DNA of 64,000 nucleotides from an uncultured Flavobacteriales bacterium. GTDB lineage: Bacteria; Bacteroidota; Bacteroidia; CAIKAF01. Of this stretch, positions 11,229 to 50,418 are shown piece after piece. Location: assembly GCA_903825395.1 (NCBI GenBank), contig CAIKAF010000010.1:16700-80699 (forward strand), read 5' to 3'. Positions within the stretch are counted from its first letter, which is position 1. Every line of letters begins with the position of its first letter. Below the pieces are notes generated by a model. It ran no database searches and was not told the DNA's origin. It saw only the letters and a list, made by a program, of their open reading frames with translations. The translations under genes and the position numbers were made by a program.

Positions 11229-11312
11229 GCAAACTAAACGAGGAAACAGGGGATTTGGTTTTAACCTCCCAGAGAATGGTCATCGCGGAAAGGAGAAGAC
11301 GTTGGATAATTT

Positions 11313-11460
11313 GGGCGGCTGCGGGCTTTCACCGGTAGTCCGCGGTGGCCGGGCGGGCTGTTGCCGGGCTGCGGTGGCTCCCAAGGTCGCCTCCTCGCCG
11401 CGGCACAGCTGCCGCCGGCCCCCTTGCGGGCAACCGGGTTCAATCCCTGCCGCGGGCGGC
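11313..11460 (+). repeat. GC-rich dispersed element, copy A (somewhat diverged)
   Basis: gggcggctgcgggctttcaccggtagtccgcggtggcc...ctcccaaggtcgcctcc...gggcaaccgggttcaatccctgccgcgggc. Homologous to the copies at 39831, 44437, 56876, 58428, 62991 and 63271. Confidence 0.8.
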
Positions 11461-11841: not shown

Positions 11842-12420
11842 TTGGTCCAACAATTAGGGAGTATTACAGTTTTATTTGTATTGGTTTATACCTTGCAAAA
11901 CAAGATGATTGGAGAACTTGGAGAAAAAGGCAGGGAACTAGACCGAATTAAGGAAATTGAAAAAACAGTTAACAATATTGATACTGCTTATTTTAAGTAT
12001 GATGCAGAGAACAAAAAGCATATTCTAAATATGCATTTCTTGTTTCCAAAAGGCAGCTATGATATCTCTAAAATCGTGCCTGACAAACGGGCTGACTTGC
12101 TTAAAGCGGGTAACGTAATTAAACAACTCATTTTAAAATATCCGGAGGAAGAAAACATTAAATATCTAATAGTAGTAGAAGGACAAGCATCAAAAGACAA
12201 TTGGGTGGGTAATGACGACCTGAGTTACCACAGAGCGCAATCGCTAATTAAGTTATGGGAGCAAAACAATATTGGACTTGACAAATTAAAGAACTGTGAA
12301 ATAATTGTTGCAGGAAGTGGCGAGAAAGGTATTCCAAGGACACAACCAGACATTGGTAACGCTAACCAAAGATTTTTAATAACTATCGTTCCTAAAATCG
12401 GCCAAATGAAAAATAAATAG
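11842..12420 (+). CDS. OmpA/MotB-like peptidoglycan-binding protein with N-terminal TM helix and coiled coil, in an AT-rich islet
   Basis: TM segment ITVLFVLVYTL. The C-terminal YLIVVEGQASKDNWVGNDDLSYHRAQSLIKLW...GLDKL...IIVAGSGEKGIPRT fits the OmpA_C pattern (N..LS..RA ... G.GE..P). GC is about 33% against roughly 50% for the window. Confidence 0.55.
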   Translation: MVQQLGSITVLFVLVYTLQNKMIGELGEKGRELDRIKEIEKTVNNIDTAYFKYDAENKKHILNMHFLFPKGSYDISKIVPDKRADLLKAGNVIKQLILKYPEEENIKYLIVVEGQASKDNWVGNDDLSYHRAQSLIKLWEQNNIGLDKLKNCEIIVAGSGEKGIPRTQPDIGNANQRFLITIVPKIGQMKNK

Positions 12421-12431
12421 CCAACACATTT

Positions 12432-12494
12432 GGTGGCACTTTTTCAAAATAGGACAAGCCCAACTCTAAAGCCCAGTTTTGAAAAAGTGCCACC
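12432..12494. terminator. perfect 18-bp inverted repeat (ggtggcactttttcaaaa ... ttttgaaaaagtgccacc) between convergent genes; candidate bidirectional terminator
   Basis: Arms at 12432-12449 and 12477-12494 with a 27-nt loop. It is flanked by A/T runs on both strands and sits between the ompA-like gene (+) and the beta-barrel gene (-). Confidence 0.4.
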
Positions 12495-12531
12495 TAGCCA
12501 ACGCACCAATACAGAGCAACATGTGCCCCCC

Positions 12532-13626
12532 CTAAGGACTCACCAAACTAAACACCACCGACACAAACCACGTGTGCTGAAGGCTGTTCTCCAACAAATA
12601 CCCCTGATCCCCGAAAAAGCCCCGGAAAAATTCACGGTTGTCCGCGCCGAAGGTGTCCAGCTCAAAGGCATAGTTGTAGCGCAAGCCGGCCTGTATGCCA
12701 ATCCAATAAAAGCCGGAGAGGGAACGCTGATACTCCAAGCGCAAACGGAGCTCGCTGCGGCGCAGTTCTAGGTTGGTTTGAGACACCAAAATGTCGCTGT
12801 CTACATTCTCCAGCCGGTAACTCTGCCCTTCCAATTCAAAGCCCAAGGTGGCCAGGCTTCGAGGACTAAAGGTGCGGCGCAAACTGCCCCGGGCCGGCAA
12901 TAGACACTCTACTCCCCATTTGCCACTCGCCGAAGTCCAGTTCAACAAAACCACCGGAACGTAGTTCAATTCACCCACCCGATAGGTGCGGCTAATCCCC
13001 GCCCCCCACATAAACCGGTCGCTGACCTTGCGGCCATACAACAAGGCCGCAGAATAACGCAGGTTGCCCAAGGAGGGCAGCCGCTTCCAACCATAATCTC
13101 CACTGGCATCGGCCGAGGCCTGCAGCAATACAAAGTTCTTTTCATCAAAGGGCTTGAATACGGTAAATCCTACGCCCGCACTGCGAAGACCATTGCGCGA
13201 AAGCCATCGGTGCAACGGATGAGTCAGGGCCGTGGCATCTTCAAACACATAATTCTGATCCTGATAGTTCAGGTTCATTTGCCAGATGATGTTGTTGCGC
13301 GAAATCAAGGGGATGTTGGCCTGAAGACGCAAGCCATGCGATAATCCAATGCGGGAAGCAGAGGTGTCGGCAGGCGTGTTGGAATTGGTCATGGCGGGCG
13401 AACTTAGCCCCGCTCCGCCCACAACCTCATACCCAACACCAATGAGCCGCGCCGGACTCAAATTCAACACCTTAGAGCTGGCAAACCGCTTGGCGCCCTT
13501 GTCGGCAAAATCCAAATTGCCATACATGTCCCAGTCTTCATCGGTTGAACTGCTGTCGGTCTGTGCCGAAGCAATCAGTGGGCACAGGAACAACAAGCCC
13601 AAGGCATAGTGCTTCAGCCGCAACAT
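12532..13626 (-). CDS. putative outer-membrane beta-barrel (porin-like) protein
   Basis: Signal peptide (MLRLKHYALGLLFLCPLIASAQT) and an alternating hydrophobic beta-strand pattern with many Y/F/W/G. The start was chosen at the Met that abuts the upstream gene's stop. Confidence 0.4.
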   Translation of the reverse strand: MLRLKHYALGLLFLCPLIASAQTDSSSTDEDWDMYGNLDFADKGAKRFASSKVLNLSPARLIGVGYEVVGGAGLSSPAMTNSNTPADTSASRIGLSHGLRLQANIPLISRNNIIWQMNLNYQDQNYVFEDATALTHPLHRWLSRNGLRSAGVGFTVFKPFDEKNFVLLQASADASGDYGWKRLPSLGNLRYSAALLYGRKVSDRFMWGAGISRTYRVGELNYVPVVLLNWTSASGKWGVECLLPARGSLRRTFSPRSLATLGFELEGQSYRLENVDSDILVSQTNLELRRSELRLRLEYQRSLSGFYWIGIQAGLRYNYAFELDTFGADNREFFRGFFGDQGYLLENSLQHTWFVSVVFSLVSP

Positions 13627-14087
13627 TATTTCGCCGGGATTTGAAGCCGCTTCCATACATCGGTGCGGCCAAAGGTAGAGATGCCAATGTAACCCCGAAT
13701 GTCAAGGGTATTGGGGTCCTTCATGGAAATGGTGCAACTGTAGGTGCTGCCGTTCTCCGGATCGTAGATGGTGCCTTCACTCCAACTGTTGTTGCCGGCA
13801 TAGCTAAAATCCTTGAGCAGGCGGTAGCCTTTTAAGGGCACCGTGCGCAGGGATTCGTCGGGGTTGTTTTTATCGGTTTTCGGCTGCTTGGTTTTGGGAT
13901 CTACCGGCTCTTTAAGCCACACGATTTTTCCATAGTATTTGGGTCCGATTTTCTCGATTTTTACCCGGGCTTTGCCGTTGCTGGGCTCCCAAACGCCAAG
14001 CAGACGGTCGGCATCGGCCTGGGCAGAAAGCAAGAGGGTTGAGGCCCAGAAAAGCAGGGCCGAAGAGGTCTTTAGAACTAGGTTCAT
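13626..14087 (-). CDS. DUF2147 domain-containing periplasmic protein
   Basis: Signal peptide. GVWEPSNGKARVKIEKIG..YYGKIVWL...GTIYDPENGSTYSCTISMKD.NTLDIRGY matches the DUF2147 signature. Confidence 0.6.
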   Translation of the reverse strand: MNLVLKTSSALLFWASTLLLSAQADADRLLGVWEPSNGKARVKIEKIGPKYYGKIVWLKEPVDPKTKQPKTDKNNPDESLRTVPLKGYRLLKDFSYAGNNSWSEGTIYDPENGSTYSCTISMKDPNTLDIRGYIGISTFGRTDVWKRLQIPAK

Positions 14088-14097
14088 GGCTGCAGGA

Positions 14098-14598
14098 TTA
14101 ATAGGTTATTTCAAAAACTAAGTCGCCCAAAAAGCGAATGTTTTCTTCTACATCGGTTTTAAAATCGGTGTCGAGAACCAGGTAAAAGGTTCCTTCTTTA
14201 AAGAATGCGGAGGCATCGGTTTCGGCCGATACACCCAAGGCCGCCGTTGCGCTGTTTTCGGGCAGGGGATTGAGGACCGCCGCCGAAATCGACTCGCTGG
14301 TATTGCCCATAAAGGCCAGGGCAAAACTGCGGTAGCCTTGCAGAGACTGACCTTCGGCAGGCTTGATGTTCACGGATTTAAGCCGTACGGAACGGATTTT
14401 TTCCAAGGAGAATCCCAGGGAATCGGACAGCAGGGCGGGGTCAACCGTATGGCTGAAGGTGAAGGTGTTGGCGCCTTCGAAATAGGGCCCTGCCGATTCA
14501 AACGTAGCGTTTTGAATGGTGTAACTGCTGGTTTTTGTGCCTGAACCGCAGGCCCAGAGCAACAGCATGGCTGAAAAGTAGATGAACAATCGTTTCAT
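14098..14598 (-). CDS. hypothetical lipoprotein
   Basis: LLLWACGSG lipobox-like signal. No recognisable domain. Confidence 0.4.
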   Translation of the reverse strand: MKRLFIYFSAMLLLWACGSGTKTSSYTIQNATFESAGPYFEGANTFTFSHTVDPALLSDSLGFSLEKIRSVRLKSVNIKPAEGQSLQGYRSFALAFMGNTSESISAAVLNPLPENSATAALGVSAETDASAFFKEGTFYLVLDTDFKTDVEENIRFLGDLVFEITY

Positions 14599-14777
14599 AG
14601 CTGAAAGATAAACAATCCAATAGAATCAAGACAAAATCAAATTGAAAATGACTGAAAAAAGAAAGGAGAAAGGGCTATAAATTGTTTAAACTTCAAACGC
14701 CAAGGTTGGAACATCCGTTGATGCGCCTTGTGCGGTAAGAGGGAAAAACCGAGCAGAGCAACCGGATAAATGGCCAT

Positions 14778-14930
14778 GAGGCGCTGCGGCCCGGATTGCG
14801 GCGGCAGACGCGCCGGGGCAGGGCCTGGGCGGCCGGCTGCGGAGGCGACCAGGGGGAGCCCCACGCAAGCGGCTGCCGCCCAAGCCCTGCCACCAGCGGC
14901 TACAGCCAAAAGCCGGATAAGCCGCCCTAA
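14778..14930 (-). repeat. GC-rich dispersed element, degenerate copy
   Basis: ...ggctgcggaggcgaccagggggagccccacgcaagcggctgccgcc... aligns with the reverse-orientation copies (gcggaggcgaccttgggagccaccgcaagcccgctggg). Confidence 0.5.
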
Positions 14931-14964
14931 AAAACATAAAAACGAAGAGGGAAAAGAGGCGGTT

Positions 14965-16359
14965 TTAGCGCATTAGCTCGCCCAGCAGGGCCCGGAATTC
15001 GGCCTGTTTTTGATGCAGCTTGCGGCGAACGTCCGTTTCTTTGATTTTGTATTCTATGAACTTCTGCTGCCGCTGATTGAGTAGGAAAACGGAAGATTCG
15101 CCCAGTTCAAAGCGGCGCTGCTCGGCCCGGAATAAGGCATCCAACTGCCCGGTCATGCGCTGCAATAAGTCCAGCTGCTGCCCCAAGTTCCGCCAATCGT
15201 TGTACAGGGTAAGCAATTGGTTGCGAACGCCCAACCGCTGAAACTGATAGTCCATCTGGGCCTTGGTCAACTTGGCCTCGACTTCCTGACGCTTACCACG
15301 CTCTTTGCGCAGCAGCAAGGGCATATAAAAGTCGAGCCCGATTTTGTAGTTGTTTCTGAACCAAGACGGCTGAGATTCCTGATACAGGGCATTCCAGCGG
15401 GCATTCAGGACGGGAAGCTGATTCCAAACGGCCAGCTTGCGTTCCACTTCAAGTTCGGCCAGCTGGAATTGCTGCCGCAGCAACAGCGGCGAGCTTTGAT
15501 CGGCCTGAGGCAAAATGCTCGACAAGGAATCGACCGAAGGCAAGGCGGGACTGACATCAAACCGGATTTCATCGGGAATGACCGAAGCCGGAACTTCCAT
15601 AGGGGTTTGACGGTCGCGCCACAAAAAGGTGCTGAGCAGCAGCCGCGAGCGCAGCAATTCCTGCCCGGCCACCAGCTGCCCGGTTTGCCGTTCCTGATAC
15701 AAAACAAAGGCATCTAGAGTATCAATGCCGGGGATTTCGCCCAGCTCGAAGGCGGCTTTAATGGAATTGTACTGCCGCTCGGCCACCTGAACCGAGGTGG
15801 CAAACACCTGCACGTTCCGGTAGGCCGCCGACCAATCCCAATAGGCTTTTATGGCTTTGAGCATCAGTTCGTTCCAGGCTTCAATGCGCTCTTGCTCGGC
15901 GGCAAGCAGACCCTGCTGTGCCTGGCGCAACATGGCCCTTCGTTCATCAAAAATGAGTCCGCGCAGCAAGCTGGCTTCTATTCCCACAGCGGGAAGCCCC
16001 ATTTCGGGAATGGTGCGCGAGGGATCGATGAAGGAGCCGCGCATCCAATCAAAGGAGGCGTAACCGGACAGGCCAAACCAGGTCGGCACCTTCAGCTTGG
16101 TTTCCCACCATTGCCAGTAGTTTTTTTGGTCGAAGTCTTTTTGTTCAAAGTTGCTTTGCAACAGGGGGTCGAATCCGCCGCGGGCCGAAAGCAATTGGCC
16201 TTTGGCTTGTTCTGATATTTGATCGATGGCCGCTCCGTACGGATGGTGCTTGGCCACATACTCCAGGTAGGTGTTGAATTGAAGCACCGCCGTCGTGTCT
16301 TGAGCAGAGCAGAACAGGGCCCATGCCCAGCCAATCCATACCAAGCTCTTCAGCCTCAT
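14965..16359 (-). CDS. TolC-like outer-membrane efflux protein
   Basis: Signal peptide. Two repeated coiled-coil/beta halves. The stop overlaps the HlyD gene start (ATGA). 464 aa. Confidence 0.7.
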   Translation of the reverse strand: MRLKSLVWIGWAWALFCSAQDTTAVLQFNTYLEYVAKHHPYGAAIDQISEQAKGQLLSARGGFDPLLQSNFEQKDFDQKNYWQWWETKLKVPTWFGLSGYASFDWMRGSFIDPSRTIPEMGLPAVGIEASLLRGLIFDERRAMLRQAQQGLLAAEQERIEAWNELMLKAIKAYWDWSAAYRNVQVFATSVQVAERQYNSIKAAFELGEIPGIDTLDAFVLYQERQTGQLVAGQELLRSRLLLSTFLWRDRQTPMEVPASVIPDEIRFDVSPALPSVDSLSSILPQADQSSPLLLRQQFQLAELEVERKLAVWNQLPVLNARWNALYQESQPSWFRNNYKIGLDFYMPLLLRKERGKRQEVEAKLTKAQMDYQFQRLGVRNQLLTLYNDWRNLGQQLDLLQRMTGQLDALFRAEQRRFELGESSVFLLNQRQQKFIEYKIKETDVRRKLHQKQAEFRALLGELMR

Positions 16360-17723
16360 TTTTTCGGTTTAGGGGTAGTGGTGCTTGCTTTTTCGGGCAG
16401 AGCAGAATAGAAATTGGGCGGGAATCCGTTGATTTGCCGCCACAGTTCATACCAAATGGGGACGTCTTGAAGCAGGGCAAAGCCTTGGGCTCCGGCACCC
16501 ACTCGAATTTGCTGAGGCCATCCTCCTTCTTCGATATCGGGAGCTACCAGCATTCGATACATCCCATTTTCAGAAATGTCGGAATCGATGGAAGAGATTT
16601 TTCCGCCGAAGGTGCCGAAGGAAACTCCGGGCCAGCCGGAAAAGACGATGGTGGGCCATCCGTCGAACATGATGCGAACGGTTTCGCCGCGTTGCATCAA
16701 AGGGAGGTCAACGGGCTTGACGTACATTTCAATGGCCAGTCGGGGCTTCAGCGCCGTGATGGTAAGAACGGGTTCTCCGACCGATACGTTTTCGCCCAAA
16801 CCTGACTTTAAGATTTTAACCACTTGCCCGTCTTTTGGGGCGGTGATGTGCCAGAACCGACTGCGGATGCTGTAGTTGGCGTAGGTGTTGTTCAGCTTGG
16901 CAATGTCTTCGTCGGTCTTAAACAGTTCGGTATTGGCGGTTTGAATTTCCGACTCGATTTTAAAGATTTTCGAGAGGTATTCGGTTTCGATGCCGTTTAG
17001 GTCGATGGTGGCGTTGATGAGTTCTCGGTTGGCATTGTCCAGTTTGTTTTCGGCGGCAACGAGTTTCCCGGCGGTTTCCTGCATTTTATTCCGGCGGTTT
17101 TCCAATTCGCGCAAGGACAAGATGCCTTCTTGCTTGTACATGATTTCGGCGCGTTTAACCTGATCTTCGGCAATTTTATAGGCCGTTTTAGCCACTTCCA
17201 CCTCGGCACTGTCAATGCCGACCTTGCGGCGGGCAATGCTGATTTTGTTGCGGGCCTGTTGCAAGCTGATGCGCAGGTTGTTGCGCTCGGCAGCAATCTG
17301 CCGTTCCAGCTGCATGATTTTGTCTTGATAGGCGCCCCCCGATTTCTCGCGGGCGGTGAGTTGTTCCTGGGTGCGGCGCAACAGGTTGGGATCAAAGTAT
17401 TGGTCTTTGATTTCGCTGATGAAAACGATGGTATCGCCGGCACGAACGGTATCGCCTTCTTGAACGTACCAGCGTTCAATGCGGCCGTCGATGCGGCTTT
17501 GAAGGGTTTGTGGCCGGTCTTCGGGAGTCAGCGTGGTCACTTTTCCATACCCGCGAATGTTCTGAGTCCAAGGCAGAAACAACAATAAAAAGCCCAAAAA
17601 GGCAAAGCCGACCAGCCAGTAGGCCAACATGCGGGGAGTCCGCGGATTGGTCATCGCCCGAAAGGCTCCAAATTGGTCTTGCTCCATTTCCAGCGGAGCC
17701 TGGTATTTTGACATATCAAGCAT
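16356..17723 (-). CDS. HlyD-family membrane-fusion (type I secretion periplasmic adaptor) protein
   Basis: Single N-terminal TM (LVGFAFLGFLLLFLPW), a long coiled coil, and lipoyl/beta-barrel segments (GDTIVFISE...). 455 aa. Confidence 0.8.
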   Translation of the reverse strand: MLDMSKYQAPLEMEQDQFGAFRAMTNPRTPRMLAYWLVGFAFLGFLLLFLPWTQNIRGYGKVTTLTPEDRPQTLQSRIDGRIERWYVQEGDTVRAGDTIVFISEIKDQYFDPNLLRRTQEQLTAREKSGGAYQDKIMQLERQIAAERNNLRISLQQARNKISIARRKVGIDSAEVEVAKTAYKIAEDQVKRAEIMYKQEGILSLRELENRRNKMQETAGKLVAAENKLDNANRELINATIDLNGIETEYLSKIFKIESEIQTANTELFKTDEDIAKLNNTYANYSIRSRFWHITAPKDGQVVKILKSGLGENVSVGEPVLTITALKPRLAIEMYVKPVDLPLMQRGETVRIMFDGWPTIVFSGWPGVSFGTFGGKISSIDSDISENGMYRMLVAPDIEEGGWPQQIRVGAGAQGFALLQDVPIWYELWRQINGFPPNFYSALPEKASTTTPKPKK

Positions 17724-17726
17724 AGC

Positions 17727-19895
17727 CTATTCCAAAACCTGGTTGAAGGGAGAGCCGGCTGGCAATTCAGATGGTTTTCCATCGTACACCAAGCTGCCTT
17801 GGTCTAAAATAACCAAGCGCTTGCAGGCCATAGCCATATCCCTGTTTTTACTAACAATCAATAAGGTGGTTTCACTCATGTCGTCAATGAGCAGCCGCCG
17901 TAAGTCGGCCCGTTGTTCCGGTCCCAAGCCCAGTCCCAAATCTTCCAACAGCAAAATCCTGGGCTTTTCAATCAAGGCCCGGGCCAATGAAATTTTCCGA
18001 AGGGTTGAGGTTGAAATGCCTTTTTTATCGGGAATCAACACCGTATCGTATCCTTTTTTCAAGGCTTGAATTTCTTGGGTTAAGCCGACCGCTTTCACCA
18101 CCTCATTCACTTCTGAAAAGCCAATACCGGGTCGCCCCATGCTAATGTTTTCAAATACAGTGCCCCAAAAAATGGTGTCTTGCGATACGGTTTCGCCAAT
18201 CAGGGTATGTACGTCTTGGGCGTCCAGGTTCCGCAAGGGAACGTCATCCAGCAGCACCAATCCGGCCGAGGGCTGGTACAGGCCGCTCAACAAACTCAAC
18301 AGGGTAGATTTTCCAGCCCCTTCTCCTCCGGTTAAGCATACTTTTTCGCCCGATACAATGCGCAGCTGCACCTGCTTCAATACGCTTTTTCCGGAATGCG
18401 GAGAAACATAGCTCAATCCCCTTGCCTCAATTCCAATGCCCCCTTGCTGCAATTGGGTAGAAAGGCGCCGCCCAGAATGCTGTTCCAGGGGAATGTCGGT
18501 TACTTTGCCCAGTTTTTCGGCCGCGGTCAGCACATCGTACACCGTTTCCAAACCTTGAATGAATTTTTCAACCGAGTTGATGATTAGGATGATGACAATT
18601 TCTCCGGCCACAAATTGCCCGATGTTGATTTGCTGGTTCACCACCAAAGCCCCGCCCAACACCAGCAAACCTGCCGTCAAAATGACTTTGAAGGCCACCA
18701 TGAACCAGTTTTGCGACACAATGATTCGGAAGCGTTCTCGGCGGTGTCGAATGTAGCCTGCCACCAGTTTGTCGGTGGTTTCTAAGGGCAGGCTGCTGTT
18801 CCCGGTCAGCTTAAACAGCTCAATGTGCCGCCCAAGTTCCTGCAGCCAATTGGCGGTTTTGTATTTGTAGTCTGATTCCAGTAAGCTGGCATCCATAGCC
18901 TTGGGACTGGTGAGTCGAAACATGACATACACCACACCAATAACGACCAGGCCAAACACCAAAAACGTAAAATGGTAGAAGGAGAGCAGAATAATTCCAA
19001 ACAAAATTTGGAGCACCGAGCTGCTGAGGTCAATCAACAACTTTGGAAGTCCTTTTTGAATGGTAAGAATATCAAAAAAGCGGTTGGCGAGCTCAGGAGG
19101 AGATTTTTCTGAGAGGGCATCCATGCGCATTCGGGGGAAGCGATAGGCAAATTCCAGCGAAGCTCGCGCAAACAGGCGCTGTTGCATGGCTTCTACCACC
19201 CAAATTTGCATGATGTGCAGGGCGCCGGTTAAGAAGGCCCCCAGCAGTACCAGCACAATGAGCAGCACCAATGAGGTGGAAACCTGAGCTCCCATTAAAA
19301 ACCCGATAATGGCCTGAATTCCCAGGGGCAGCGACAGCGCCATTACCCCGGTAAACAGGGCATATACATACAGCAGGATGACTTCCTTCCGTTCCTGGTG
19401 CATCAATCGGAAAAATCGACTCAAAGGGCCTTTCAGGCGCTTGTACTCGTCAGATTCAACCCCAAAAATCCAGTCTAAGGGTTCGAAGAGCAGCACCCGA
19501 AATCCGCCCTCGCCCGATTCAAACGCAGTCCAAGGCAATTCTCCTTTGATGCTTTTCTGCTGTACATTTCCGTCTTGAATGTGCCTTAAGTCAAAGGATT
19601 TGCCGGGATTGGTGCTGATGTAGGCTCCCGATTGGTTTTTGCCAAAAAAGACCAAGGGGAGGGCTTGTTTGGCGCAATGGGTCATCACTTTCTCGGCCGA
19701 GATGTTTCGTTCTTGAACCATGAGTTTCAAGAAGGGCGCAGCACTGCGTAAAATTTCGATGCAGTCTTCGGAGCCGTAATTCCGGTTCGATTCGATGTGC
19801 CCCAAATATTCCTGCAGCTCGGTATTGTTCCGTGTCTCTCGACGGAAAACGACCCCAAGTTCTTCAATTAACTTTTTTATATCAATTCCCAGCAT
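17727..19895 (-). CDS. ABC exporter with N-terminal C39-like peptidase domain, 6-TM permease and C-terminal ATPase (PCAT / T1SS-type ABC)
   Basis: N-terminal ~150 aa with the Cys motif GSEDCIEILRSAAPFL (cf. C39 Q..DCG.ACL). Walker A GGEGAGKSTLLSLL, signature ISTSTLRKISLARAL, Walker B ILLLED. 722 aa. Confidence 0.8.
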   Translation of the reverse strand: MLGIDIKKLIEELGVVFRRETRNNTELQEYLGHIESNRNYGSEDCIEILRSAAPFLKLMVQERNISAEKVMTHCAKQALPLVFFGKNQSGAYISTNPGKSFDLRHIQDGNVQQKSIKGELPWTAFESGEGGFRVLLFEPLDWIFGVESDEYKRLKGPLSRFFRLMHQERKEVILLYVYALFTGVMALSLPLGIQAIIGFLMGAQVSTSLVLLIVLVLLGAFLTGALHIMQIWVVEAMQQRLFARASLEFAYRFPRMRMDALSEKSPPELANRFFDILTIQKGLPKLLIDLSSSVLQILFGIILLSFYHFTFLVFGLVVIGVVYVMFRLTSPKAMDASLLESDYKYKTANWLQELGRHIELFKLTGNSSLPLETTDKLVAGYIRHRRERFRIIVSQNWFMVAFKVILTAGLLVLGGALVVNQQINIGQFVAGEIVIILIINSVEKFIQGLETVYDVLTAAEKLGKVTDIPLEQHSGRRLSTQLQQGGIGIEARGLSYVSPHSGKSVLKQVQLRIVSGEKVCLTGGEGAGKSTLLSLLSGLYQPSAGLVLLDDVPLRNLDAQDVHTLIGETVSQDTIFWGTVFENISMGRPGIGFSEVNEVVKAVGLTQEIQALKKGYDTVLIPDKKGISTSTLRKISLARALIEKPRILLLEDLGLGLGPEQRADLRRLLIDDMSETTLLIVSKNRDMAMACKRLVILDQGSLVYDGKPSELPAGSPFNQVLE

Positions 19896-19972
19896 GGAGA
19901 AGGTAGTACTTTAATTTAAATCAGAAACACAAAAGGTGGCAATAAGGTTGAGTGAGGTCTGAAAATCAGAGG

Positions 19973-21130
19973 TTAACGCCGCTCTTGCCATTGCTTTTTT
20001 ACCTCTTTTGTTAGGGCGTCTTTATGCATTAGAAAATTAATGGTATGAAGACGAACAAAGGCTTCAGAAGCGTAAAAATATCCTCCGCAATCGTTGCTTT
20101 TATCTCCCCAGGAGTTCTTCACTTTGTAGTACACGGTTCCGGCTGGATCGCGGAACATGCCGGTAATCAACATGCCGTGGTCGTCGGTCACTTCATACCG
20201 GTCAAAGGCTTCTTGCCGGGCTTCTTGGCCGATGGTTTGTTGAGGTTGCGGCGACAAAAACAGGGCTTCTTTTTCTTCGCGTGAGCGGCCGGAAAATCCG
20301 CCTTCCGGCTTAATGGCCAAGCCCATTTTATGATTAAAGCCGGGGTCGGAAACATCGGCACCCCAAGCCACAGAATATCCGTTTTTCAAGGCATTGTTCA
20401 GGCAGGCCATCAAATCGTCAAGGGGCAGATTGTAGGCTGGCTCCCAGCTCCAGTTGTCGGGAATTTCGATGGGGAAAGACTGGTAAAAGGGATGGTGATT
20501 GAACGAGGTCAAATCGGCATAATCGTTGGCATTTAGGCCAAGGCTACTGGCGTAGCTTTTCGGAGTGTAGGATTTTCCTTGCAGTTCGAAGGATCCGGGC
20601 AAAGGCCCCAAATAGGCATCCAAAACGCCGCTAAAGGCTGTTTTCCAGGCCGTAGAAAGCCGTTGGTTTGGGTTTTTAACGACGGCATCTACAAGGCTCC
20701 GCGTTACAGCATCCAGTTCATTGTGCTTCACCGTTTCCTCTCCGTACGCATTTCCGGGGTAGGCCGATTCGGGCATTAAACCAAAGGTGCGAAGCACAAA
20801 CAGCGGGTCATGAAAGGCTCCCCCGGGACCAAAATTGGCATTGCCATGCAGGCGCACGAATTTTTCCGCCTTGGCTTGGTACACGTGCCGCACCACAAAC
20901 ATTTCAGACAAATTAACATTCGGCCGCTTCATGCGCAGCAGTTCCGACTCAAAAAAGGCCAACGAAGAAAAGCTCCAGCAGGTGCTGCTTTGGTGTTGGT
21001 TTTGCACCGGACTGGCTTCCAAATCAACCTCGGCACTGAGCGAAAAAGTGGCTTTTTCCGAGGGCTTAACCGCTTGAGCAAAGCCAGCCGTGCTGGTCAA
21101 TAACAGAGATATAAATGTAAAATACCGCAT
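19973..21130 (-). CDS. secreted papain-family (C1, aminopeptidase C/bleomycin-hydrolase-like) cysteine peptidase
   Basis: Signal peptide. Catalytic Cys block QSSTCWSFSSLAFFESE, His block VTDDHGMLITG, and the NSWG motif (YKVKNSWGD). Confidence 0.65.
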   Translation of the reverse strand: MRYFTFISLLLTSTAGFAQAVKPSEKATFSLSAEVDLEASPVQNQHQSSTCWSFSSLAFFESELLRMKRPNVNLSEMFVVRHVYQAKAEKFVRLHGNANFGPGGAFHDPLFVLRTFGLMPESAYPGNAYGEETVKHNELDAVTRSLVDAVVKNPNQRLSTAWKTAFSGVLDAYLGPLPGSFELQGKSYTPKSYASSLGLNANDYADLTSFNHHPFYQSFPIEIPDNWSWEPAYNLPLDDLMACLNNALKNGYSVAWGADVSDPGFNHKMGLAIKPEGGFSGRSREEKEALFLSPQPQQTIGQEARQEAFDRYEVTDDHGMLITGMFRDPAGTVYYKVKNSWGDKSNDCGGYFYASEAFVRLHTINFLMHKDALTKEVKKQWQERR

Positions 21131-21202
21131 TTCAATTTTCTTCTTTGTCGTGAAGATACAAAATGAATTTGACTGGGGCCATTTCCGGCTTTCCGTTGTA
21201 GG

Positions 21203-21330
21203 TGAGCGGCGGCGGCGGCAAACGGGCTGGGCGGTGCGTGGGCTTCCTTTGGTCGCCTCCGCCCGCCGGCCCGTTTAAGCCGCCCCCATCCGCTCCCCTG
21301 CCACTGCAATCCGGGGCCCGGCCCCCTCAA
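21203..21330 (+). repeat. GC-rich dispersed element, degenerate copy in a divergent promoter region
   Basis: ...gggctgggcggtgcgtgggcttcctttggtcgcctccgcccgccggccc...ccactgcaatccggggcc is weakly alignable to the family consensus. Confidence 0.35.
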
Positions 21331-21448
21331 ACGAACAGGCCGTTTTAAACAAGAACCGCAACTCAATCCGCAGGAAGACGGCTTCCTTTTCCGAACACGC
21401 TGTGTACCTTTACCCCGAACTTTTTCCTGCAACTGAACTTTTATTGAC

Positions 21449-22237
21449 ATGACAGAAGAATTGAAAGGCAAGCATGCCTTAGTATGTGGAGGCTCTGAAG
21501 GCATAGGAAAGGCGGCCGCAATGGCCTTGGCGGCCATGGGGGCTCAGGTGACATTGTTGGCCAGAGACCCCGAAAAATTAATGGAAGTCCGAGATGCATT
21601 ACCGGCTTTTTCCGGCCAAAAGCACCGCACAATCGCCGCCGATATGTCCGACGCCAATGCCCTTCGGGAAGCGGTGGGTCAGTCCGTAGCCGCCTCAGGC
21701 GAGGTGCATATTTTAATCAACAATTCCGGGGGACCGGCATCCGGGCCGCTCATCCACGAGCCCATTGAAAAATTCGAACAGGTGTTCCGGCAGCATGTGC
21801 TCTCGGCCCAAACGTTAACCCAATTGCTGTTGGACGGAATGATTGGTGCCGGATATGGACGCATAATCAATGTGATTTCCACCAGCGTTAAGGCCCCTTT
21901 ACCCGGACTTGGCGTTTCCAATACCGTTCGCGGAGCTATGGGCAGCTGGGCCAAAACCCTATCGGCCGAAGTTGCCCCTTGGGGAATTACCGTGAACAAT
22001 GTGTTGCCCGGAGCCACAGATACAGCCCGGTTGAGAAATTTAATTTCCGCCAAAGCGCTAAAAACAAACCGTACAGAAGAGGATGTTGCTCAGGAAATGA
22101 TGGATGAAATTCCACTTGGTCGCTTTGCCCAGCCCGAAGAAATTGCGCATGCCATCGCCTTTCTGGCCTCGCCTCGGGCCGGGTACATTTCAGGCATCAA
22201 CCTTCCGGTGGACGGTGGCCGCCTAAAAAATCTATAA
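21449..22237 (+). CDS. short-chain dehydrogenase/reductase (SDR) family oxidoreductase
   Basis: ALVCGGSEGIGKAAA Rossmann motif, NNSG motif, ~262 aa. Confidence 0.8.
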   Translation: MTEELKGKHALVCGGSEGIGKAAAMALAAMGAQVTLLARDPEKLMEVRDALPAFSGQKHRTIAADMSDANALREAVGQSVAASGEVHILINNSGGPASGPLIHEPIEKFEQVFRQHVLSAQTLTQLLLDGMIGAGYGRIINVISTSVKAPLPGLGVSNTVRGAMGSWAKTLSAEVAPWGITVNNVLPGATDTARLRNLISAKALKTNRTEEDVAQEMMDEIPLGRFAQPEEIAHAIAFLASPRAGYISGINLPVDGGRLKNL

Positions 22238-22336
22238 ATGTGACCGCTGGGAATCGGTTTGGCGCACATTATTGCTAAAAAGCACCTTACTTTGCACCAT
22301 AATCCAACACCAACTTTTCTACCAAACCAAACCTTT

Positions 22337-24652
22337 ATGAAGCGTTTCTTTCTCCTGTTTTCTCTTTTACTGTCAATAAATGTACTCGGGCAGCTGGCTC
22401 CGGTTCCTACCTCATGGGATGCCAGCCCCCCCATGCCCAATGGTTTCACTACCAATATGGCCTCAGGTTCTGAATATTACATCAGCTCTACTTGCAGTTC
22501 CATCATTCAAAACCCATCGTCCTTTAAATTGGATTTCGGTGGCCGGTTCCTTCAAATGCAATTTGCCTCTCAACCGGGCAAGATTAGGTACGAGATCGGA
22601 GGTCAAACCGGTTCGGCGCCATATTGGAATGGAACATTCATCGTGCAATCTTCAGTGGATGGACTAAGCTGGACCGACCTGAAAACCTACACCGGAGCGC
22701 AGGCTATCCCTTCTCAAAACGATGCCACAAACTGCCTGTTGGACTCGGTCACGCCTACCGACCCGTTAACACGGTATGTACGTTTCTTCTTTCAAACCAA
22801 AATGAGCGGCAACGACCCCAATGGGGGAGGCAACATCAAAGTAGACAACATTTCTGTTTTTACACCGCCGTACACGGTTCAAAAGCTGAAGGTGTACCAA
22901 TCCAATGCAGAGCTATTTAATCCGGGCTTAACCCAGCCCGTTCAATCTGCTGTAAATGCGACCACGGCACTGCCTTTGGATTTAAGGCACGTGGGCCTTT
23001 CCGGAAATCTGACCATTTATTCCATGACCTTGAGCGGGCCGGCTGCCGGCAGCTATGCGGTAACCTCGCCCAATTTTCCACTCACTCTAACAGCCGGCAA
23101 CAGCCAAATAGCCAACATTGATTTTACGCCCAATCAGCCGGGAACCCACCAAGCCCTACTGACCATCAAAAGCAACGATCCTACAGTAGATAGTGTGTAC
23201 AGCATTCAGCTGTATGGAATTGGAGGCAATTTGGCCAGCGCTCCCGCCTTCGCGCCCAGCAATGTTTCCATTTCGAATGTTAAAACTTTCCGGTACACGG
23301 TTGGAATGACTCTTCCCATAAACGGCCCGGACGCCTATGGCGGGTATTTGGTGTTGCGCAGCGAAGGCAGTCCAATCAATGCCGTACCTCAAAACGGACA
23401 AAACTACCAGCGGGGCATGAGCATTGGCAATGCCAAAGTGGTGTACGTAGGCAAACCCGCTCCCGGACCTTTTGCCTTTATTCCCAATTGGATTTTGGCC
23501 GGTAGAACCGATGAAATATCCGTTTACGGATTCAATGGAACCGGCAGTTACACCAACTATGCGGCGACTCCGGTTAATGCATCCATTACTACGCCGTCCA
23601 CCATGGAAGCGCCCAACGAGTACAGCGGAATAGACCCCTCCCTGAACACCTTCCCTGCCGATTTGCAGGCTTTGATTAATCCGCATACAGCCATTTTTTA
23701 CAGCGATTACATTGAAACAATGATTCAAGGGTTTCAAGCTAGAGACACCTTTATTGTCAGCGGACCCAACATCAAAGATCGGGTGCTGGATTGCCCATAT
23801 TCCGGCGCCCCCATCTTATATCAAGAGCCGTTTCAGTTCGGAGCCACCGGAACCAGCCGTGAGCACAGCTGGCCACACACCTGGATGCCAACCCACCCTG
23901 CAGATTCGCCAGAAAAACCAGAGTACAACGACCAACACAATTTATTCCCGACCTTTCAAAATGCCAACGGCGTCCGCTGCAACTACCCCTTGGGAGAAGT
24001 AGTGAATCCTTTGGTTTCAACCGGAGTAGGAGTACTTGGATTGGATGCGGTTGGAAACCGGGTGTACGAGCCCGCCGATTACCACAAGGGGCGCGCCGCG
24101 CGTGCTTTGATGTACATGGCCGCATGCTACAACAGTGTGAGTGGAAATGGCTGGAATTTCAATGCCCCCATGGGCGAGAATTGCAACGGAACTCCCCTCA
24201 ATGCAATTCAAAACCAAGAGGTAATAAAAAACTGGCACTTCAATTATCCCCCAACCTCCTTTGACATTGCCCGCAACGACTTCTTGGATAGCCTGCAAGG
24301 CAATCGGAATCCGTTTGTAGATCGGCCGGATTATGCCTGCTACATTGATTTCTTAACCATGACGTACATTCCAAATCCCAGCATCCCCTGTTTTGTGACG
24401 GGCTTGGACAACATGGCGGCATTGCCATCCAAGGTATGGCCAAATCCGGCGCATGAAGTTGTTCATGTTGCCCTGGCCGGAGCTAAAGCATTTCAGTTCC
24501 GCATCAGCGATCTGATGGGGCGCCGAGTGTTGTCGGGAGCTTCTTCGTCAGAGGTAGAACAAATCAACATTCAAGGCCTGAGTTCAGGGACCTACATGGT
24601 TGAAATTGAACATCAGGGAAGCCGGGCACTGCACCGCCTAGTGATTCCCTAA
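22337..24652 (+). CDS. secreted endonuclease I (EndA/NucM-type) family nuclease with N-terminal beta-domains and T9SS C-terminal sorting domain
   Basis: Signal peptide MKRFFLLFSLLLSINVLG. The DYHKGRAARALMYMAACYN and GNRNPFVDRPDY blocks match the Endonuclease_1 signature. The C-terminal VWPNP...QINIQGLSSGTYMVEIEHQG is T9SS-CTD-like. The start is moved to the 22337 ATG. Confidence 0.65.
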   Translation: MKRFFLLFSLLLSINVLGQLAPVPTSWDASPPMPNGFTTNMASGSEYYISSTCSSIIQNPSSFKLDFGGRFLQMQFASQPGKIRYEIGGQTGSAPYWNGTFIVQSSVDGLSWTDLKTYTGAQAIPSQNDATNCLLDSVTPTDPLTRYVRFFFQTKMSGNDPNGGGNIKVDNISVFTPPYTVQKLKVYQSNAELFNPGLTQPVQSAVNATTALPLDLRHVGLSGNLTIYSMTLSGPAAGSYAVTSPNFPLTLTAGNSQIANIDFTPNQPGTHQALLTIKSNDPTVDSVYSIQLYGIGGNLASAPAFAPSNVSISNVKTFRYTVGMTLPINGPDAYGGYLVLRSEGSPINAVPQNGQNYQRGMSIGNAKVVYVGKPAPGPFAFIPNWILAGRTDEISVYGFNGTGSYTNYAATPVNASITTPSTMEAPNEYSGIDPSLNTFPADLQALINPHTAIFYSDYIETMIQGFQARDTFIVSGPNIKDRVLDCPYSGAPILYQEPFQFGATGTSREHSWPHTWMPTHPADSPEKPEYNDQHNLFPTFQNANGVRCNYPLGEVVNPLVSTGVGVLGLDAVGNRVYEPADYHKGRAARALMYMAACYNSVSGNGWNFNAPMGENCNGTPLNAIQNQEVIKNWHFNYPPTSFDIARNDFLDSLQGNRNPFVDRPDYACYIDFLTMTYIPNPSIPCFVTGLDNMAALPSKVWPNPAHEVVHVALAGAKAFQFRISDLMGRRVLSGASSSEVEQINIQGLSSGTYMVEIEHQGSRALHRLVIP

Positions 24653-24676: not shown

Positions 24677-25468
24677 ATGGAAGAGGCCCATTTTCATGCC
24701 GCCTTTCTTACCTTTGAATCAATGCAAAGCCAGAATAACGGTGTGTTGAATATTGATGCGGTGTTTGTTGTGCATGTAAAGCACGACCTTGAGCGTGAAA
24801 CCTGGATGCAGCAGCAATTGAATCGGTTGGGTATTGCCTTTCGTTGGATGTTGGAAGCAGACCTTCAAGAGCTAAGCCCCGAAATCATAGAGCAGTACTT
24901 TTCCGGAGATGAGATGGCCGGAGCCCCTAGGCCTGCCCATTCCTGTGCCTTAAAGCACCTGTTCATTTATCGAACTATGGTGCAAGAAAACATAGGGTCG
25001 GCCCTTATTTTAGAAGACGATGCCATTTTATCGAACAACTTTGTGCCGCTGTTCAATCAAATGGTAGAGGAATGGAAATCGTTGCCCGAGGCGGAACGCG
25101 ATATGGCCTTGATTAATCTTGAAAACAGCCTTCAGGTCTGGGTGCCGCGGAAGCAAAGAAAAAAAAATCAATTGCTCTATGCCATGCCCAAAGGCCGGGC
25201 AACCGGGGGGTATATGTTGAGCAAGCCCTTGGCCAAACGCATTTGGAATCATGCTCAGGAAAAGGGTTGCCATCGTCCAATAGACTGGTACCACAACGAC
25301 TTAAGCGGCATGATTGGGTTGAAGCATTACTGGGCGCATCCAACCTGCGTAGAGCAAGGCAGCCACAACGGCAGGTGGAAATCGTTGGTGGACCATAAGC
25401 CGGCGGGCTGGTTTCGGCAAATCACCTGGCAAGTTCAATTGAGAATAAAATCCCTTTTTGCTCCGTAA
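24677..25468 (+). CDS. glycosyltransferase family 25 (LPS/LOS biosynthesis, Lic2B/LgtB-like)
   Basis: IDAVFVVHVKHDLERETWMQQQL...ALKHLFIYRTMV...ALILEDDAIL is typical of GT25. Contains an A9 run in the coding sequence (25159-25167). Confidence 0.6.
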   Translation: MEEAHFHAAFLTFESMQSQNNGVLNIDAVFVVHVKHDLERETWMQQQLNRLGIAFRWMLEADLQELSPEIIEQYFSGDEMAGAPRPAHSCALKHLFIYRTMVQENIGSALILEDDAILSNNFVPLFNQMVEEWKSLPEAERDMALINLENSLQVWVPRKQRKKNQLLYAMPKGRATGGYMLSKPLAKRIWNHAQEKGCHRPIDWYHNDLSGMIGLKHYWAHPTCVEQGSHNGRWKSLVDHKPAGWFRQITWQVQLRIKSLFAP

Positions 25469-27296
25469 CTTGCATCCGGTGAATCGATTGTTGCGCATAT
25501 TTCATTTAACCCGAGGGCTCCGTAAAAACCTTTGGTTTTATCTTGTTTTTGGTTGGATAAGCACTTTTTTTGGCTTGTTTTCCTTGGTGTTGATTGCTCC
25601 CCTCCTGGAACTTATTTTTTATCCCTCGGCGCAGGTCAACAATGTAGCACCAAGCTGGGAATGGAGCAAACAAGGCATGTTGGACTCGGCCGAATATGCC
25701 CTTCACCACATTGGAGTCATACATGGACCTCAATTCGCCTTGCTGATGGTCTGCCTGTTTGTAGTAGCCGCCATTGGACTGAAAAACGGGTTTCATTATT
25801 GGGCAACCCGGCATTCCTCGCTGGTGGTAAATAAAAGCACAGAAACCCTTCGCAACCAGCTGTTTCGTCGGGTGTTAAATTTGCCTCAAGCCTACCTGAC
25901 CGATAGCCGCAAGGGAGAATTGGTGTCGCGCTTAACCAACGATGTGCAGGACATCGAGTTTTCAATATTGTCGGTGGTTACGGCCTTTTTTCGGCACCCA
26001 CTTCACATTGTTACCTACGTAGTTGCCTTGCTTCTGCTGAGTCCTCAGCTCACCTTATTTTTGCTTTTGTTTTTGCCCATCACCGGCGGCGTTATAGGCC
26101 TGGTTAGTCGCGCGCTGCGTAAAAACACCAGAATGGCACAACAGCATTTTGGTCGCCTGGTGGCCCACCTGGAAGAAAGCCTTAGCGTGTTGAAAATGAT
26201 TCGCTCCTTTGGTGCCGCCCCTTTTTTTACCGCCCGCTTTGAATCAGAAAATCGGGAATATACCCAGCGAAGAATTCGGATGTTTCGTCAGGCCGACCTT
26301 GCTGTTCCTTTGGGAGAGGTGCTTGGGGTTGCTGCTGTTGCCGCAGTGCTTTGGTGGGGCGGGTCACTGGTGTTTTCTGCTCAACTTTCGGCAGCTGCAT
26401 TTATTACTTACATCGTTGTTTTTGCTCAGCTTATCGAGCCATTTAAAGGGCTATCCAGATCCATTTACGATGCGCAAAAAGGAGTGGCGGCATTGGATGG
26501 AATCGAAGAAATGATTCGGCAGGCCAAGCCTCATGCCCTTAGCGAAGGCCAAGCGACCATGACTTCTTTTCAACACCACATTGAAATCCAAAACCTAGGA
26601 TTTCAGTTCGGCGAAGAGTGGATTTTGCGTGGAATGAACTTCAGCATTCCCAAAGGAAAAACAGTAGCCGTGGTGGGGCCATCCGGTTCTGGAAAAACAA
26701 CCCTAATCAATCTGTTGGCTCGGTTTTATGACCCCCTTGAAGGGCAAATCAGGGTTGATGGCGTCAATTTAAAGGAAATACGCCCCGAGGATTGGAGGAA
26801 GGTGTTGGCCTTGGTGAGCCAGGAAGCCCTGTTGTTCAACGACAGCATTGAAAGCAACATTCGGCTTGGGGAGCAGGATAGAACCGAAGACCACTTAATT
26901 CAGGCGGCTCAACAGGCCAATGCCTTGGAATTTATTCTGCAACAACCTCAGGGCTTTCAAACTCAGGTGGGCGACGGAGGCAATCGATTGTCTGGAGGTC
27001 AAAAGCAACGGATTGGATTGGCTCGGGCCTTGTACCATGGAGCAGAAATTTTGCTTTTGGATGAAGCGACGTCTGCCTTAGACTCGGAATCTGAGCGCGC
27101 GGTGCAGGCGGCATTGGCTCAATTGTCGGGGTGCCACACCTTGGTGGTTGTGGCCCATCGACTAAGTACGGTGCGGTCTGCCGACCTTATTTTGGTGTTG
27201 AAGGGCGGGAGGATACAAGAGGCAGGAACGCATCAGGAATTGATGGAACAGGGAGGCATGTACAAGTCAATGGTTGAGCTTCAGGCGTTTAGGTAG
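25458..27296 (+). CDS. ABC transporter permease/ATPase, MsbA-like lipid exporter
   Basis: 6-TM N-domain, then GPSGSGKTT, LSGGQKQRIGLARAL and LLLDEATSALD. 612 aa. Overlaps the GT25 gene by 11 nt. Confidence 0.8.
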   Translation: MLRNLHPVNRLLRIFHLTRGLRKNLWFYLVFGWISTFFGLFSLVLIAPLLELIFYPSAQVNNVAPSWEWSKQGMLDSAEYALHHIGVIHGPQFALLMVCLFVVAAIGLKNGFHYWATRHSSLVVNKSTETLRNQLFRRVLNLPQAYLTDSRKGELVSRLTNDVQDIEFSILSVVTAFFRHPLHIVTYVVALLLLSPQLTLFLLLFLPITGGVIGLVSRALRKNTRMAQQHFGRLVAHLEESLSVLKMIRSFGAAPFFTARFESENREYTQRRIRMFRQADLAVPLGEVLGVAAVAAVLWWGGSLVFSAQLSAAAFITYIVVFAQLIEPFKGLSRSIYDAQKGVAALDGIEEMIRQAKPHALSEGQATMTSFQHHIEIQNLGFQFGEEWILRGMNFSIPKGKTVAVVGPSGSGKTTLINLLARFYDPLEGQIRVDGVNLKEIRPEDWRKVLALVSQEALLFNDSIESNIRLGEQDRTEDHLIQAAQQANALEFILQQPQGFQTQVGDGGNRLSGGQKQRIGLARALYHGAEILLLDEATSALDSESERAVQAALAQLSGCHTLVVVAHRLSTVRSADLILVLKGGRIQEAGTHQELMEQGGMYKSMVELQAFR

Positions 27297-39830: not shown

Positions 39831-39985
39831 CGCCGCCCGCGGCAGGGATTGAAGAGGGTAGGACGCCAGTGTGCCGGAGCCTGGCCCGCGAGGCGCGGAG
39901 GCGACCTTGGGAGCCCCCGCAAGCCCGCTGGGCCAGCCTTCCGGCACCGGCGGACTAGCCCTGAAAGCCCGCCCGCCGCCCCCCC
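39831..39985 (-). repeat. GC-rich dispersed element, copy B (reverse orientation)
   Basis: cccgcggcagggattgaag...gcggaggcgaccttgggagcccccgcaagcccgctgggccagcc...gaaagcccgcccgccgccccc. Confidence 0.8.
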
Positions 39986-50382: not shown

Positions 50383-50418
50383 ATTCCCAAGCTCTAAAAC
50401 CAACCAAACCTCTCTCCC

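Follow-up and report, generated by a model that had tools for sequence, protein, structure and literature searches.

The locus described here raises two connected questions: what does a complete bacterial export pump carry when no cargo gene is evident beside it, and does a peptidase-like domain at the head of its transporter act on that cargo? The pump lies in a stretch of 64,000 nucleotides (the window, whose numbering is used throughout) from an uncultured Flavobacteriales bacterium, positions 16,700 to 80,699 of contig CAIKAF010000010.1 in assembly GCA_903825395.1. Within it, positions 12532-19895 are occupied by six minus-strand open reading frames (ORFs) that all have the same orientation in the ORF map of the window. 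A first-pass annotation had recognized an ATP-binding cassette (ABC)/HlyD/TolC exporter in the style of a type I secretion system (T1SS) among them, and the ORF map and Pfam bear out this assignment, the gene coordinates and the co-orientation. The locus is a tightly coupled tripartite ABC/HlyD/TolC export pump. At a probability of roughly 0.6, we read this pump as an exporter of the T1SS/peptidase-containing ABC transporter (PCAT) lineage that bears a vestigial C39-like domain, serves one conserved substrate that the locus does not encode, and has independent genes for neighbors. The components of the pump are as follows.

17727 to 19895, minus strand: ABC half-transporter, 722 aa (Pfam ABC_membrane and ABC_tran)
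19461 to 19895, minus strand: N-terminal domain of the ABC protein, about residues 1-145, non-catalytic, predicted C39-like papain fold
19761 to 19763, minus strand: codon of Cys45, the cysteine flagged in the first-pass annotation; not the catalytic position
17727 to 18458, minus strand: nucleotide-binding domain of the ABC protein, about residues 480-722
16356 to 17723, minus strand: HlyD-type membrane-fusion (periplasmic adaptor) protein, 455 aa (Pfam HlyD_3, HlyD_D23 and Biotin_lipoyl_2)
14965 to 16359, minus strand: TolC-family outer-membrane factor, 464 aa (Pfam OEP, in two stretches)

Both partners that define a type I secretion system or tripartite ABC exporter, a HlyD-family adaptor and a TolC-family outer-membrane factor, are thus encoded directly behind the ABC gene, with 3 nt from the ABC stop to the adaptor start and an overlap of 4 nt between the adaptor and TolC genes. 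The ABC protein consists of the N-terminal C39-like domain, an exporter transmembrane domain of six helices and a nucleotide-binding domain whose motifs are non-canonical, and the adaptor has a cytoplasmic N-terminal tail and one transmembrane helix. A dimer of the half-transporter, the adaptor and the dedicated channel would together span the envelope. The best NCBIfam matches of the ABC protein are the LssB T1SS, NHLM bacteriocin, peptide-cleavage/export and HlyB families, all far below cutoff, and since all of these matches begin at about residue 152-164, the first ~150 residues are left unmatched. The best NCBIfam match of the adaptor, TIGR01843 (type_I_hlyD), is also below cutoff. Homologs of the ABC protein found in the PDB with phmmer include ComA and HlyB, and PrtD (5l22) aligns over residues 167-707. 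Scans for sigma-70 promoters and intrinsic terminators gave a signal no higher than background, and neither the ABC gene nor the lipoprotein gene that follows the pump has the Bacteroidetes -7 motif TAnnTTTG in its upstream sequence.

The N-terminal domain had been described as a C39-like module, and this description survives at the level of the predicted fold but not at the level of sequence. The predicted model matches the C39 papain-like fold found in PCATs and in ABC-transporter maturation and secretion (AMS) systems, with its elements in the order H3-16, H25-32, H42-56, E58-65, H67-76 and then five strands, an order that we take to be collinear with ComA-PEP. Pfam, run on residues 1-171 at E-values up to 10, returned nothing relevant to C39; NCBIfam did not detect C39 in the ABC protein; a 26-sequence family profile had no match among all PDB sequences; and neither hhalign against HlyB's C39-like domain (CLD) nor global hhalign against a ComA/HlyB mini-alignment gave a significant alignment. 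A profile of the domain run against 1.84 billion cluster representatives recovered only 84 relatives, each an ABC fusion or a fragment, and none of them linked the domain to canonical C39 domains.

Because no sequence method gave a significant C39 alignment, we mapped the catalytic residues by the order of secondary-structure elements and by a profile merge, made with MAFFT, that joins the family to ComA and HlyB, whose sequences were checked against the PDB. In C39 domains, the catalytic Cys begins the first helix. The string GSEDCIEIL, which the first-pass annotation had taken for a retained catalytic-Cys context, is indeed present as residues 41-49, but its Cys45 falls within the third helix of the model (H42-56) and adjoins the 'GTTALG' helix in the merge. 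The catalytic residues of ComA are Q11, C17, H96 and D112 (PMC8277102). In the merge, Asp5 stands opposite C17, H96 meets a gap that follows Tyr92, and the partner of D112 is Asp108, a residue that is not conserved, while the oxyanion Gln has no counterpart because the protein starts only four residues ahead of the Cys-equivalent position. The earlier remark that the conserved His is missing was therefore correct; the alignment to C39 that had been proposed as a check on the Cys/His/Asp triad yielded no Pfam match, and no triad was found in the merge.

Conservation across 109 domains (26 from the first search and 83 from the scan of 1.84 billion representatives) leads to the same result. The column of Cys45 holds Phe in 81 of 106 sequences, Leu in 11 and Cys in three, and Cys45 is retained solely in homologs at least 83% identical. 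The Asp5 column holds Gln in 40 of 94 sequences and Cys in none. Cys reaches 15% in no column, and His does so only at position 19, distant from the active site. Judged by these alignments and by the predicted model, Cys45 is a lineage-specific swap for a buried Phe on another helix and not a retained catalytic residue. As no Cys or His is conserved at the catalytic positions, the domain appears to be non-catalytic across the family; the Gln/Cys/His/Asp set of PCAT/AMS systems is missing, and with every catalytic residue lost the domain could not cut double-glycine (GG) leaders. The ABC protein of a CLD-type T1SS likewise starts with a C39-like domain that is not catalytic. The His-Trp stacking pair characteristic of CLDs (HlyB H83/W77; PMC8277102) was not seen in a low-identity alignment: residues 85-100, GKNQSGAYISTNPGKS, contain no His, and Phe83 and Phe84 (LVFF) stand in the region aligned to W77. 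The domain may be at most a docking or regulatory appendage, comparable to a CLD.

All ORFs of at least 20 aa in 12000-22300 were listed and read by eye, and the pattern E-[LIVM]-x-x-[LIVM]-x-G-[GAS], placed no more than 30 residues from a start codon, was sought in six frames of the whole window. The strict pattern had no match in or near the locus, and none of the ORFs in 12000-22300 has a GG leader, nor did the suggested check of small ORFs for GG, GA or GS leaders find one there. A GG-leader substrate gene of the sort that accompanies PCAT/AMS exporters is accordingly missing from the locus. Pfam scans of 20 of the larger ORFs of the window outside the locus found no RTX (repeats-in-toxin) or other T1SS-type cargo; these ORFs encode housekeeping enzymes, TonB-dependent receptors and several proteins with C-terminal sorting domains of the type IX secretion system (T9SS). 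The large RTX-type cargo with a C-terminal secretion signal that would be expected of a CLD-type T1SS is not adjacent to the pump, and such a cargo may be elsewhere in the genome. Beside 84 related pump loci, no conserved cargo-like gene was found. The statement that the cargo is not evident, with no GG-leader or RTX gene nearby, is thus upheld by the leader pattern, the reading of ORFs and the Pfam scans alike.

T9SS is the visible protein-secretion route in this genome, as three proteins in the window carry the Por_Secre_tail sorting domain: an Endonuclease I fusion (22259-24652), a 630-aa protein of unknown kind (40139-42031) and a di-haem cytochrome c peroxidase (55354-56751). At 49099-51990 there are two neighboring PKD-domain proteins, one of which has a Gly_rich_2 domain and long GGxGG runs; PTL_trimer/Gly_rich_2 proteins similar to this pair occur near the pump in the related locus L004.

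Two spacers had been put forward as sites of leader-peptide genes, and although both exist, at 14599-14964 (366 bp, between the TolC and lipoprotein genes) and 19896-19972 (77 bp, between an upstream peptidase gene and the ABC gene), neither appears to hold one. The smaller contains a single ORF, 26 aa long, which partly coincides with the end of the peptidase gene. In the larger, the sole ORFs are 66-90 aa long, occur on both strands and lie within a segment of 82% GC. This gap is accounted for by a dispersed repeat element, not a peptide gene. The two copies near the pump are listed here.

14771 to 14925, no strand: GC-rich long-hairpin repeat copy, most of the TolC-lipoprotein gap, 82% GC (blastn copies in the window)
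21201 to 21320, no strand: second repeat copy, just upstream of the peptidase gene (blastn and alignment)

These copies flank the block of peptidase, ABC, adaptor and TolC genes, and the first lies between the pump and the three genes downstream. Nine copies occur in the window (11311-11460, 14771-14900, 21201-21320, 39831-39990, 44471-44560, 56901-57000, 58431-58530, 62991-63140 and 63261-63390); the element is ~145-165 nt long, its GC content is ~75-82% against roughly 50% for the genome, and the nine align over ~165 nt. Comparison with the ORF map puts seven copies between large ORFs, and their coordinates place those at 11311-11460 and 63261-63390 in such gaps also. Because of indels of 1-2 nt among the nine copies, the repeat has no conserved reading frame. 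RNAalifold, given seven copies with the diverged ones at 14771-14900 and 21201-21320 omitted, predicted a single hairpin, long and imperfect, with 54 pairs, of which 12 show compensatory double changes, and the gap copy has a folding energy of -108.6 kcal/mol (z -4.7). No Rfam family matched the repeat at gathering score; plant miRNA-precursor models, which matched by the E-value threshold only, were rejected as a mere reflection of the long hairpin. ARAGORN found no tRNA in the repeat, despite the T-loop-like GGTTCAATCC. The ORFs of 66-90 aa at 14637-14937 were rejected as genes, since they lie inside the 82% GC repeat and their frame is broken by the indels between copies. Together with those at 21097-21537, the set being 66-146 aa long and rich in Ala, Gly, Pro and Arg, they are artifacts that the GC-rich repeat produces and ought not to be annotated as genes.

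The relatives of the pump show what is constant in this system. A family scan limited to one genome per species returned at least 594 matches, and of the 80 loci kept, 78 are labeled Bacteroidota or unclassified (Flavobacteriales, Cytophagales, Saprospiraceae, Chitinophagales and others). The other two, L017 and L081, are contigs of metagenome-assembled genomes labeled 'uncultured Akkermansia sp.' and 'Variovorax paradoxus' that carry a typical Bacteroidota tetR-abc-mfp-omf operon, and they are probably mis-binned. The pump would thus belong to a large, uncharacterized family found only in Bacteroidota and encoded mostly in a tightly packed operon of this form. A phmmer search with the proteins of the window against the 84 related loci found 89 ABC, 82 adaptor and 80 TolC homologs; the adaptor gene directly follows the ABC gene in 82 loci and the TolC gene follows the adaptor in 80, with a 4-nt overlap as the most frequent adaptor/TolC spacing.

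In 53 of the 84 loci, a gene for a TetR-family protein (PF00440) of ~227 aa stands directly upstream in the same orientation (e.g., L006:7284-7961 and L008:1651-2334). The median distance from TetR to ABC gene is ~2 nt (47 pairs measured), which in these four-gene operons leaves no space for a precursor peptide gene. Five loci of Saprospiraceae type have a gene for an extracytoplasmic function (ECF) sigma factor nearby in place of TetR. The TetR gene is also missing from the closest relatives, L001-L004, and a hidden Markov model built from 54 TetR neighbors found nothing in any frame of the window, so the TetR-adjacent arrangement does not extend to the locus studied here. Among 205 family members, 148 are short (~555-600 aa, without the N-terminal domain) and 57 are long, so that ~70% do without the domain, and TetR accompanies both forms. 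Taken together, the TetR linkage in relatives, the lack of any cargo gene that is conserved and the higher conservation of the transmembrane domain relative to the ATPase domain suggest a single conserved substrate and not a locus-specific bacteriocin or RTX toxin. This substrate could be a small compound, hydrophobic or amphipathic, or a peptide that is not processed and whose gene lies elsewhere.

The ATPase domain holds an unexpected feature. Its motifs were compared by phmmer alignment to ABCB19 and ABCB1, pairwise with an MsbA-like ABC protein encoded at 25458-27296 of the window, and by residue frequencies in the 205 family proteins. Walker A is intact (GGEGAGKST, residues 523-531), with its Gly present in 205 of 205 proteins (100%) and its Lys in 201 (98%), and the A-loop Tyr496 is almost invariant, so that the Walker A and A-loop aromatic residues that mark the ABC ATPase superfamily are both in place. 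The domain scores 66.6 bits against Pfam ABC_tran (cutoff 25), compared with 114.6 for the MsbA-like protein. The remaining motifs depart from the standard ones. In place of the LSGGQ signature the protein has ISTST, the region reading L-[PS]-x-S-[IV]-x-x-K in the family with Gln in 0 of 205. The Walker B motif and catalytic pair read LLLED instead of hhhhDE, and across the 205 proteins, 109 have Glu at the Walker B Asp position, 38 have Asp and 27 Asn, while the catalytic Glu position holds Asp in 143 and Glu in 39 and is acidic in 89%. The H-loop is SKN instead of AHR, with His in three family members and Asn in 131. The MsbA-like protein, which served as a control, carries ILLLDE and AHR.

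The mean frequency of the top residue in the 205 members is 0.69 in the transmembrane domain and 0.50 in the ATPase domain, the reverse of the pattern expected of ABC transporters, in which the ATPase domain should be the more conserved. The ATP site nevertheless appears divergent but selected rather than decaying, since the substitute residues are conserved in their turn and hundreds of species keep the family whole and in synteny. This pattern in the aligned sequences indicates a rewired site under purifying selection, which would be a working, if unusual, ATP site. Literature searches found no paper on the family or on its non-canonical ATPase motifs.

The genes on either side of the pump had also been considered part of the system. 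Four co-oriented genes had been counted downstream, where there are three, and a peptidase gene lies 77 bp upstream of the ABC gene.

14098 to 14598, minus strand: lipoprotein, 166 aa, jelly-roll beta-sandwich, gene 1 of the downstream trio (Pfam: no family)
13626 to 14087, minus strand: DUF2147 protein, 153 aa, with signal peptide, gene 2 of the trio (Pfam DUF2147, E 5e-36)
12532 to 13656, minus strand: DUF6268 putative outer-membrane beta-barrel protein, gene 3 of the trio (Pfam DUF6268)
19973 to 21130, minus strand: secreted C1-like cysteine peptidase of PepC/bleomycin-hydrolase type, 385 aa (Pfam Peptidase_C1_2 and Peptidase_C1)

The lipoprotein has a lipobox with an invariant Cys17, and its predicted model is a generic jelly-roll sandwich. 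DUF2147 is described as lipocalin-like in a passage of a bioRxiv preprint that cites the HP1028 crystal structure (10.1101/2025.07.29.667474). The true start of the DUF6268 protein is probably its second Met, at 13626, since the signal peptide comes after this residue in the translation. The peptidase has a signal peptide and apparently intact Cys, His and Asn motifs (TCWSF, DDHGM and NSWG).

When homologs of the trio were sought within 8 kb of the pump in the 84 related loci, no lipoprotein, DUF2147 or DUF6268 homolog was found in any of them. This includes L004, whose ABC protein is 87% identical and in which the peptidase-ABC-adaptor-TolC block is retained and followed by unrelated genes on the opposite strand. 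Relatives with ABC proteins 53% and 42% identical retain only the ABC, adaptor and TolC genes. Relatives of the lipoprotein are few (nine clusters), and on their contigs the trio occurs without the pump, at L085:1283-3363 and L087:8001-10110, with DUF6268 conserved after DUF2147 in both. In L087 (lipoprotein ~29% identical) the trio adjoins thrS-infC-rpmI-rplT, and in L085 (62%) the gene upstream of it is not a TolC homolog. The trio is an independent, conserved envelope module that is a neighbor by chance here and not a pump component. The peptidase gene, found in L004 and missing from the other 83 loci, is a neighbor linked only in close relatives and lies outside the conserved module.

Several explanations other than a vestigial domain and a single conserved substrate were weighed against these data. 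An active PCAT/AMS transporter, cleaving a GG leader and exporting a bacteriocin-like peptide from a small unannotated ORF nearby, would agree with the predicted C39-type fold, with the presence of a Cys at residue 45 and with the Joint Genome Institute (JGI) label of several homologs, 'bacteriocin/lantibiotic exporter with double-glycine peptidase domain'. The residues themselves contradict it, as there is no Cys at the catalytic helix and no His at the His strand, the late start excludes the oxyanion Gln, and Cys45 is not conserved; a GG-leader ORF was not found, most of the family has no N-terminal domain at all, and in relatives TetR abuts the ABC gene. An active peptidase is on this basis effectively excluded, and we give it practically no chance. 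The first-pass annotation had itself stated that an N-terminal domain without catalytic residues, combined with a failure to find leader-peptide genes, would make this a generic efflux or T1SS pump, and that is essentially what we observe; its observation is partly confirmed and its interpretation partly supported. The main rival retains the dead domain but gives it a task: in a classical CLD-type T1SS, it would hold on to a large unfolded protein (an adhesin or one of RTX type) that has its signal at the C-terminus and is encoded elsewhere. In HlyB-type systems, a non-catalytic CLD accompanies large unprocessed cargo (PMC8277102), the nearest curated families are T1SS permease/ATPases and HlyD, and the outer-membrane factor is in the operon, all of which fit. 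This account is nonetheless rather unlikely, as no such cargo was seen in the Pfam scans of 20 of the larger ORFs outside the locus or conserved beside the 84 loci, the His-Trp pair is missing with no His in residues 85-100, the family is TetR-linked and mostly without the domain, and the visible secreted proteins of the window bear T9SS sorting domains.

Two further explanations concern the engine and the neighbors. The ABC homodimer could be a pseudo-ATPase that does not hydrolyze ATP in the normal way and acts as a nucleotide-gated or scaffold component, or is a decaying remnant. The missing signature Gln (0/205), the near-missing H-loop His (3/205), the change of the Walker B Asp to Glu (109), Asn (27) or others, the lower conservation of the ATPase domain and its low ABC_tran score relative to the MsbA-like protein would all follow. 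We find this quite unlikely, given that the substitutions form a conserved motif of their own, the catalytic position is still acidic in 89%, Walker A and Tyr496 are nearly invariant, and at least 594 species genomes have the family intact and in synteny. A six- or seven-gene unit, in which the lipoprotein, DUF2147 protein and beta-barrel and/or the C1 peptidase would be accessory, immunity or processing factors, as had been suggested for the downstream genes, has in its favor their co-orientation and proximity in the window, the presence of the peptidase gene upstream in L004 also, and the thought that a DUF2147 protein, if lipocalin-like as that preprint passage has it, could in principle carry a hydrophobic substrate. 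It is very unlikely, however, because the trio is near none of the 84 pump loci, occurs pump-free beside thrS-infC-rpmI-rplT or other genes, and is separated from the pump by a 366-bp spacer with a -108 kcal/mol hairpin, and the peptidase is not found in 83 of the 84 loci.

Some observations weigh against the explanation that we prefer, a T1SS/PCAT-lineage exporter with a vestigial domain and one conserved substrate. In the ATPase domain, the alignments show neither the ABC signature nor the canonical Asp-Glu pair of Walker B nor the H-loop His, which bears on the capacity of the protein to power transport. Regulation in the style of an efflux pump is suggested by relatives only, as there is no TetR gene anywhere in the window, and by sequence the ABC and adaptor proteins appear nearest to peptide and protein exporters (LssB, NHLM, HlyB and type_I_hlyD), not to drug pumps. 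The C39-like fold depends on a single predicted model built from a 26-sequence alignment, and the mapping onto ComA is a low-identity profile merge for which hhalign was not significant. Finally, the literature searches turned up no experimental data on any family member.

A tentative extension of the preferred explanation, less likely than not, is that this is a Bacteroidota-wide, apparently housekeeping family of T1SS-like exporters in which the conserved, rewired ATP site (L-P-x-S, 'ED' and H-loop Asn) works within a presumed homodimer, as either a new catalytic solution or a nucleotide-gated, non-hydrolytic conduit. The family might move one conserved envelope-related or signaling substrate under TetR control, and the C39-like domain, which sequence searches do not detect, might be a relic of a peptidase-containing ancestor. 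The locus itself is of modest interest, as a fairly ordinary representative of an unstudied variant of T1SS-like ABC exporters that is specific to Bacteroidota: it hides neither a bacteriocin nor an RTX toxin, the Cys that had been flagged is coincidental, and the neighboring genes form another module. Its wider relevance is in annotation. In databases, Bacteroidota proteins go by the name 'peptidase domain-containing ABC transporter' or 'bacteriocin exporter with double-glycine peptidase domain' in their thousands, and such names are misleading for a family whose members lack the N-terminal domain or have it in a catalytically dead form. If the non-canonical motifs are functional, the family offers a natural test of how far a homodimeric exporter can dispense with the machinery of signature, Walker B and H-loop, and the TetR partner of the relatives provides an experimental handle on the substrate.

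A comparison of the pump with better-known exporters shows both shared architecture and clear differences. In HlyB-HlyD-TolC of E. coli, the CLD of HlyB is not detectably similar in sequence to the N-terminal domain of the pump, which also does not have the His83/Trp77 pair. Unlike the hemolysin system, the pump locus has no RTX cargo or acyltransferase gene, includes the outer-membrane factor in the operon and has non-canonical ATPase motifs, and the operon of its relatives includes a TetR gene. The AMS/PCAT bacteriocin exporters PCAT1, ComA and LahT possess the Gln/Cys/His/Asp set that the pump does not, and the GG-leader gene that goes with them was not found here; in contrast to them, the pump is Gram-negative and tripartite, completed by an adaptor and an outer-membrane factor. 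The closest likeness in gene order is to PrtDEF and HasDEF, in which the abc, mfp and omf genes are likewise contiguous, and 148 of 205 family members have no N-terminal appendix, as is the case for PrtD and HasD. The ATPase motifs of PrtD are canonical. Unlike PrtDEF and HasDEF, which have their cargo (proteases and HasA) encoded alongside, the pump family has no conserved cargo gene and instead has TetR in the neighboring place. In this it resembles the TetR-controlled tripartite drug-efflux operons built around resistance-nodulation-division (RND) or major facilitator superfamily (MFS) pumps, as 53 of the 84 relatives combine TetR, transporter, adaptor and outer-membrane factor. Unlike those operons, which use RND, MFS or MacB proteins, the inner-membrane part here is an ABC protein of the HlyB/PCAT type, and the TetR gene of the relatives has no counterpart in the window.

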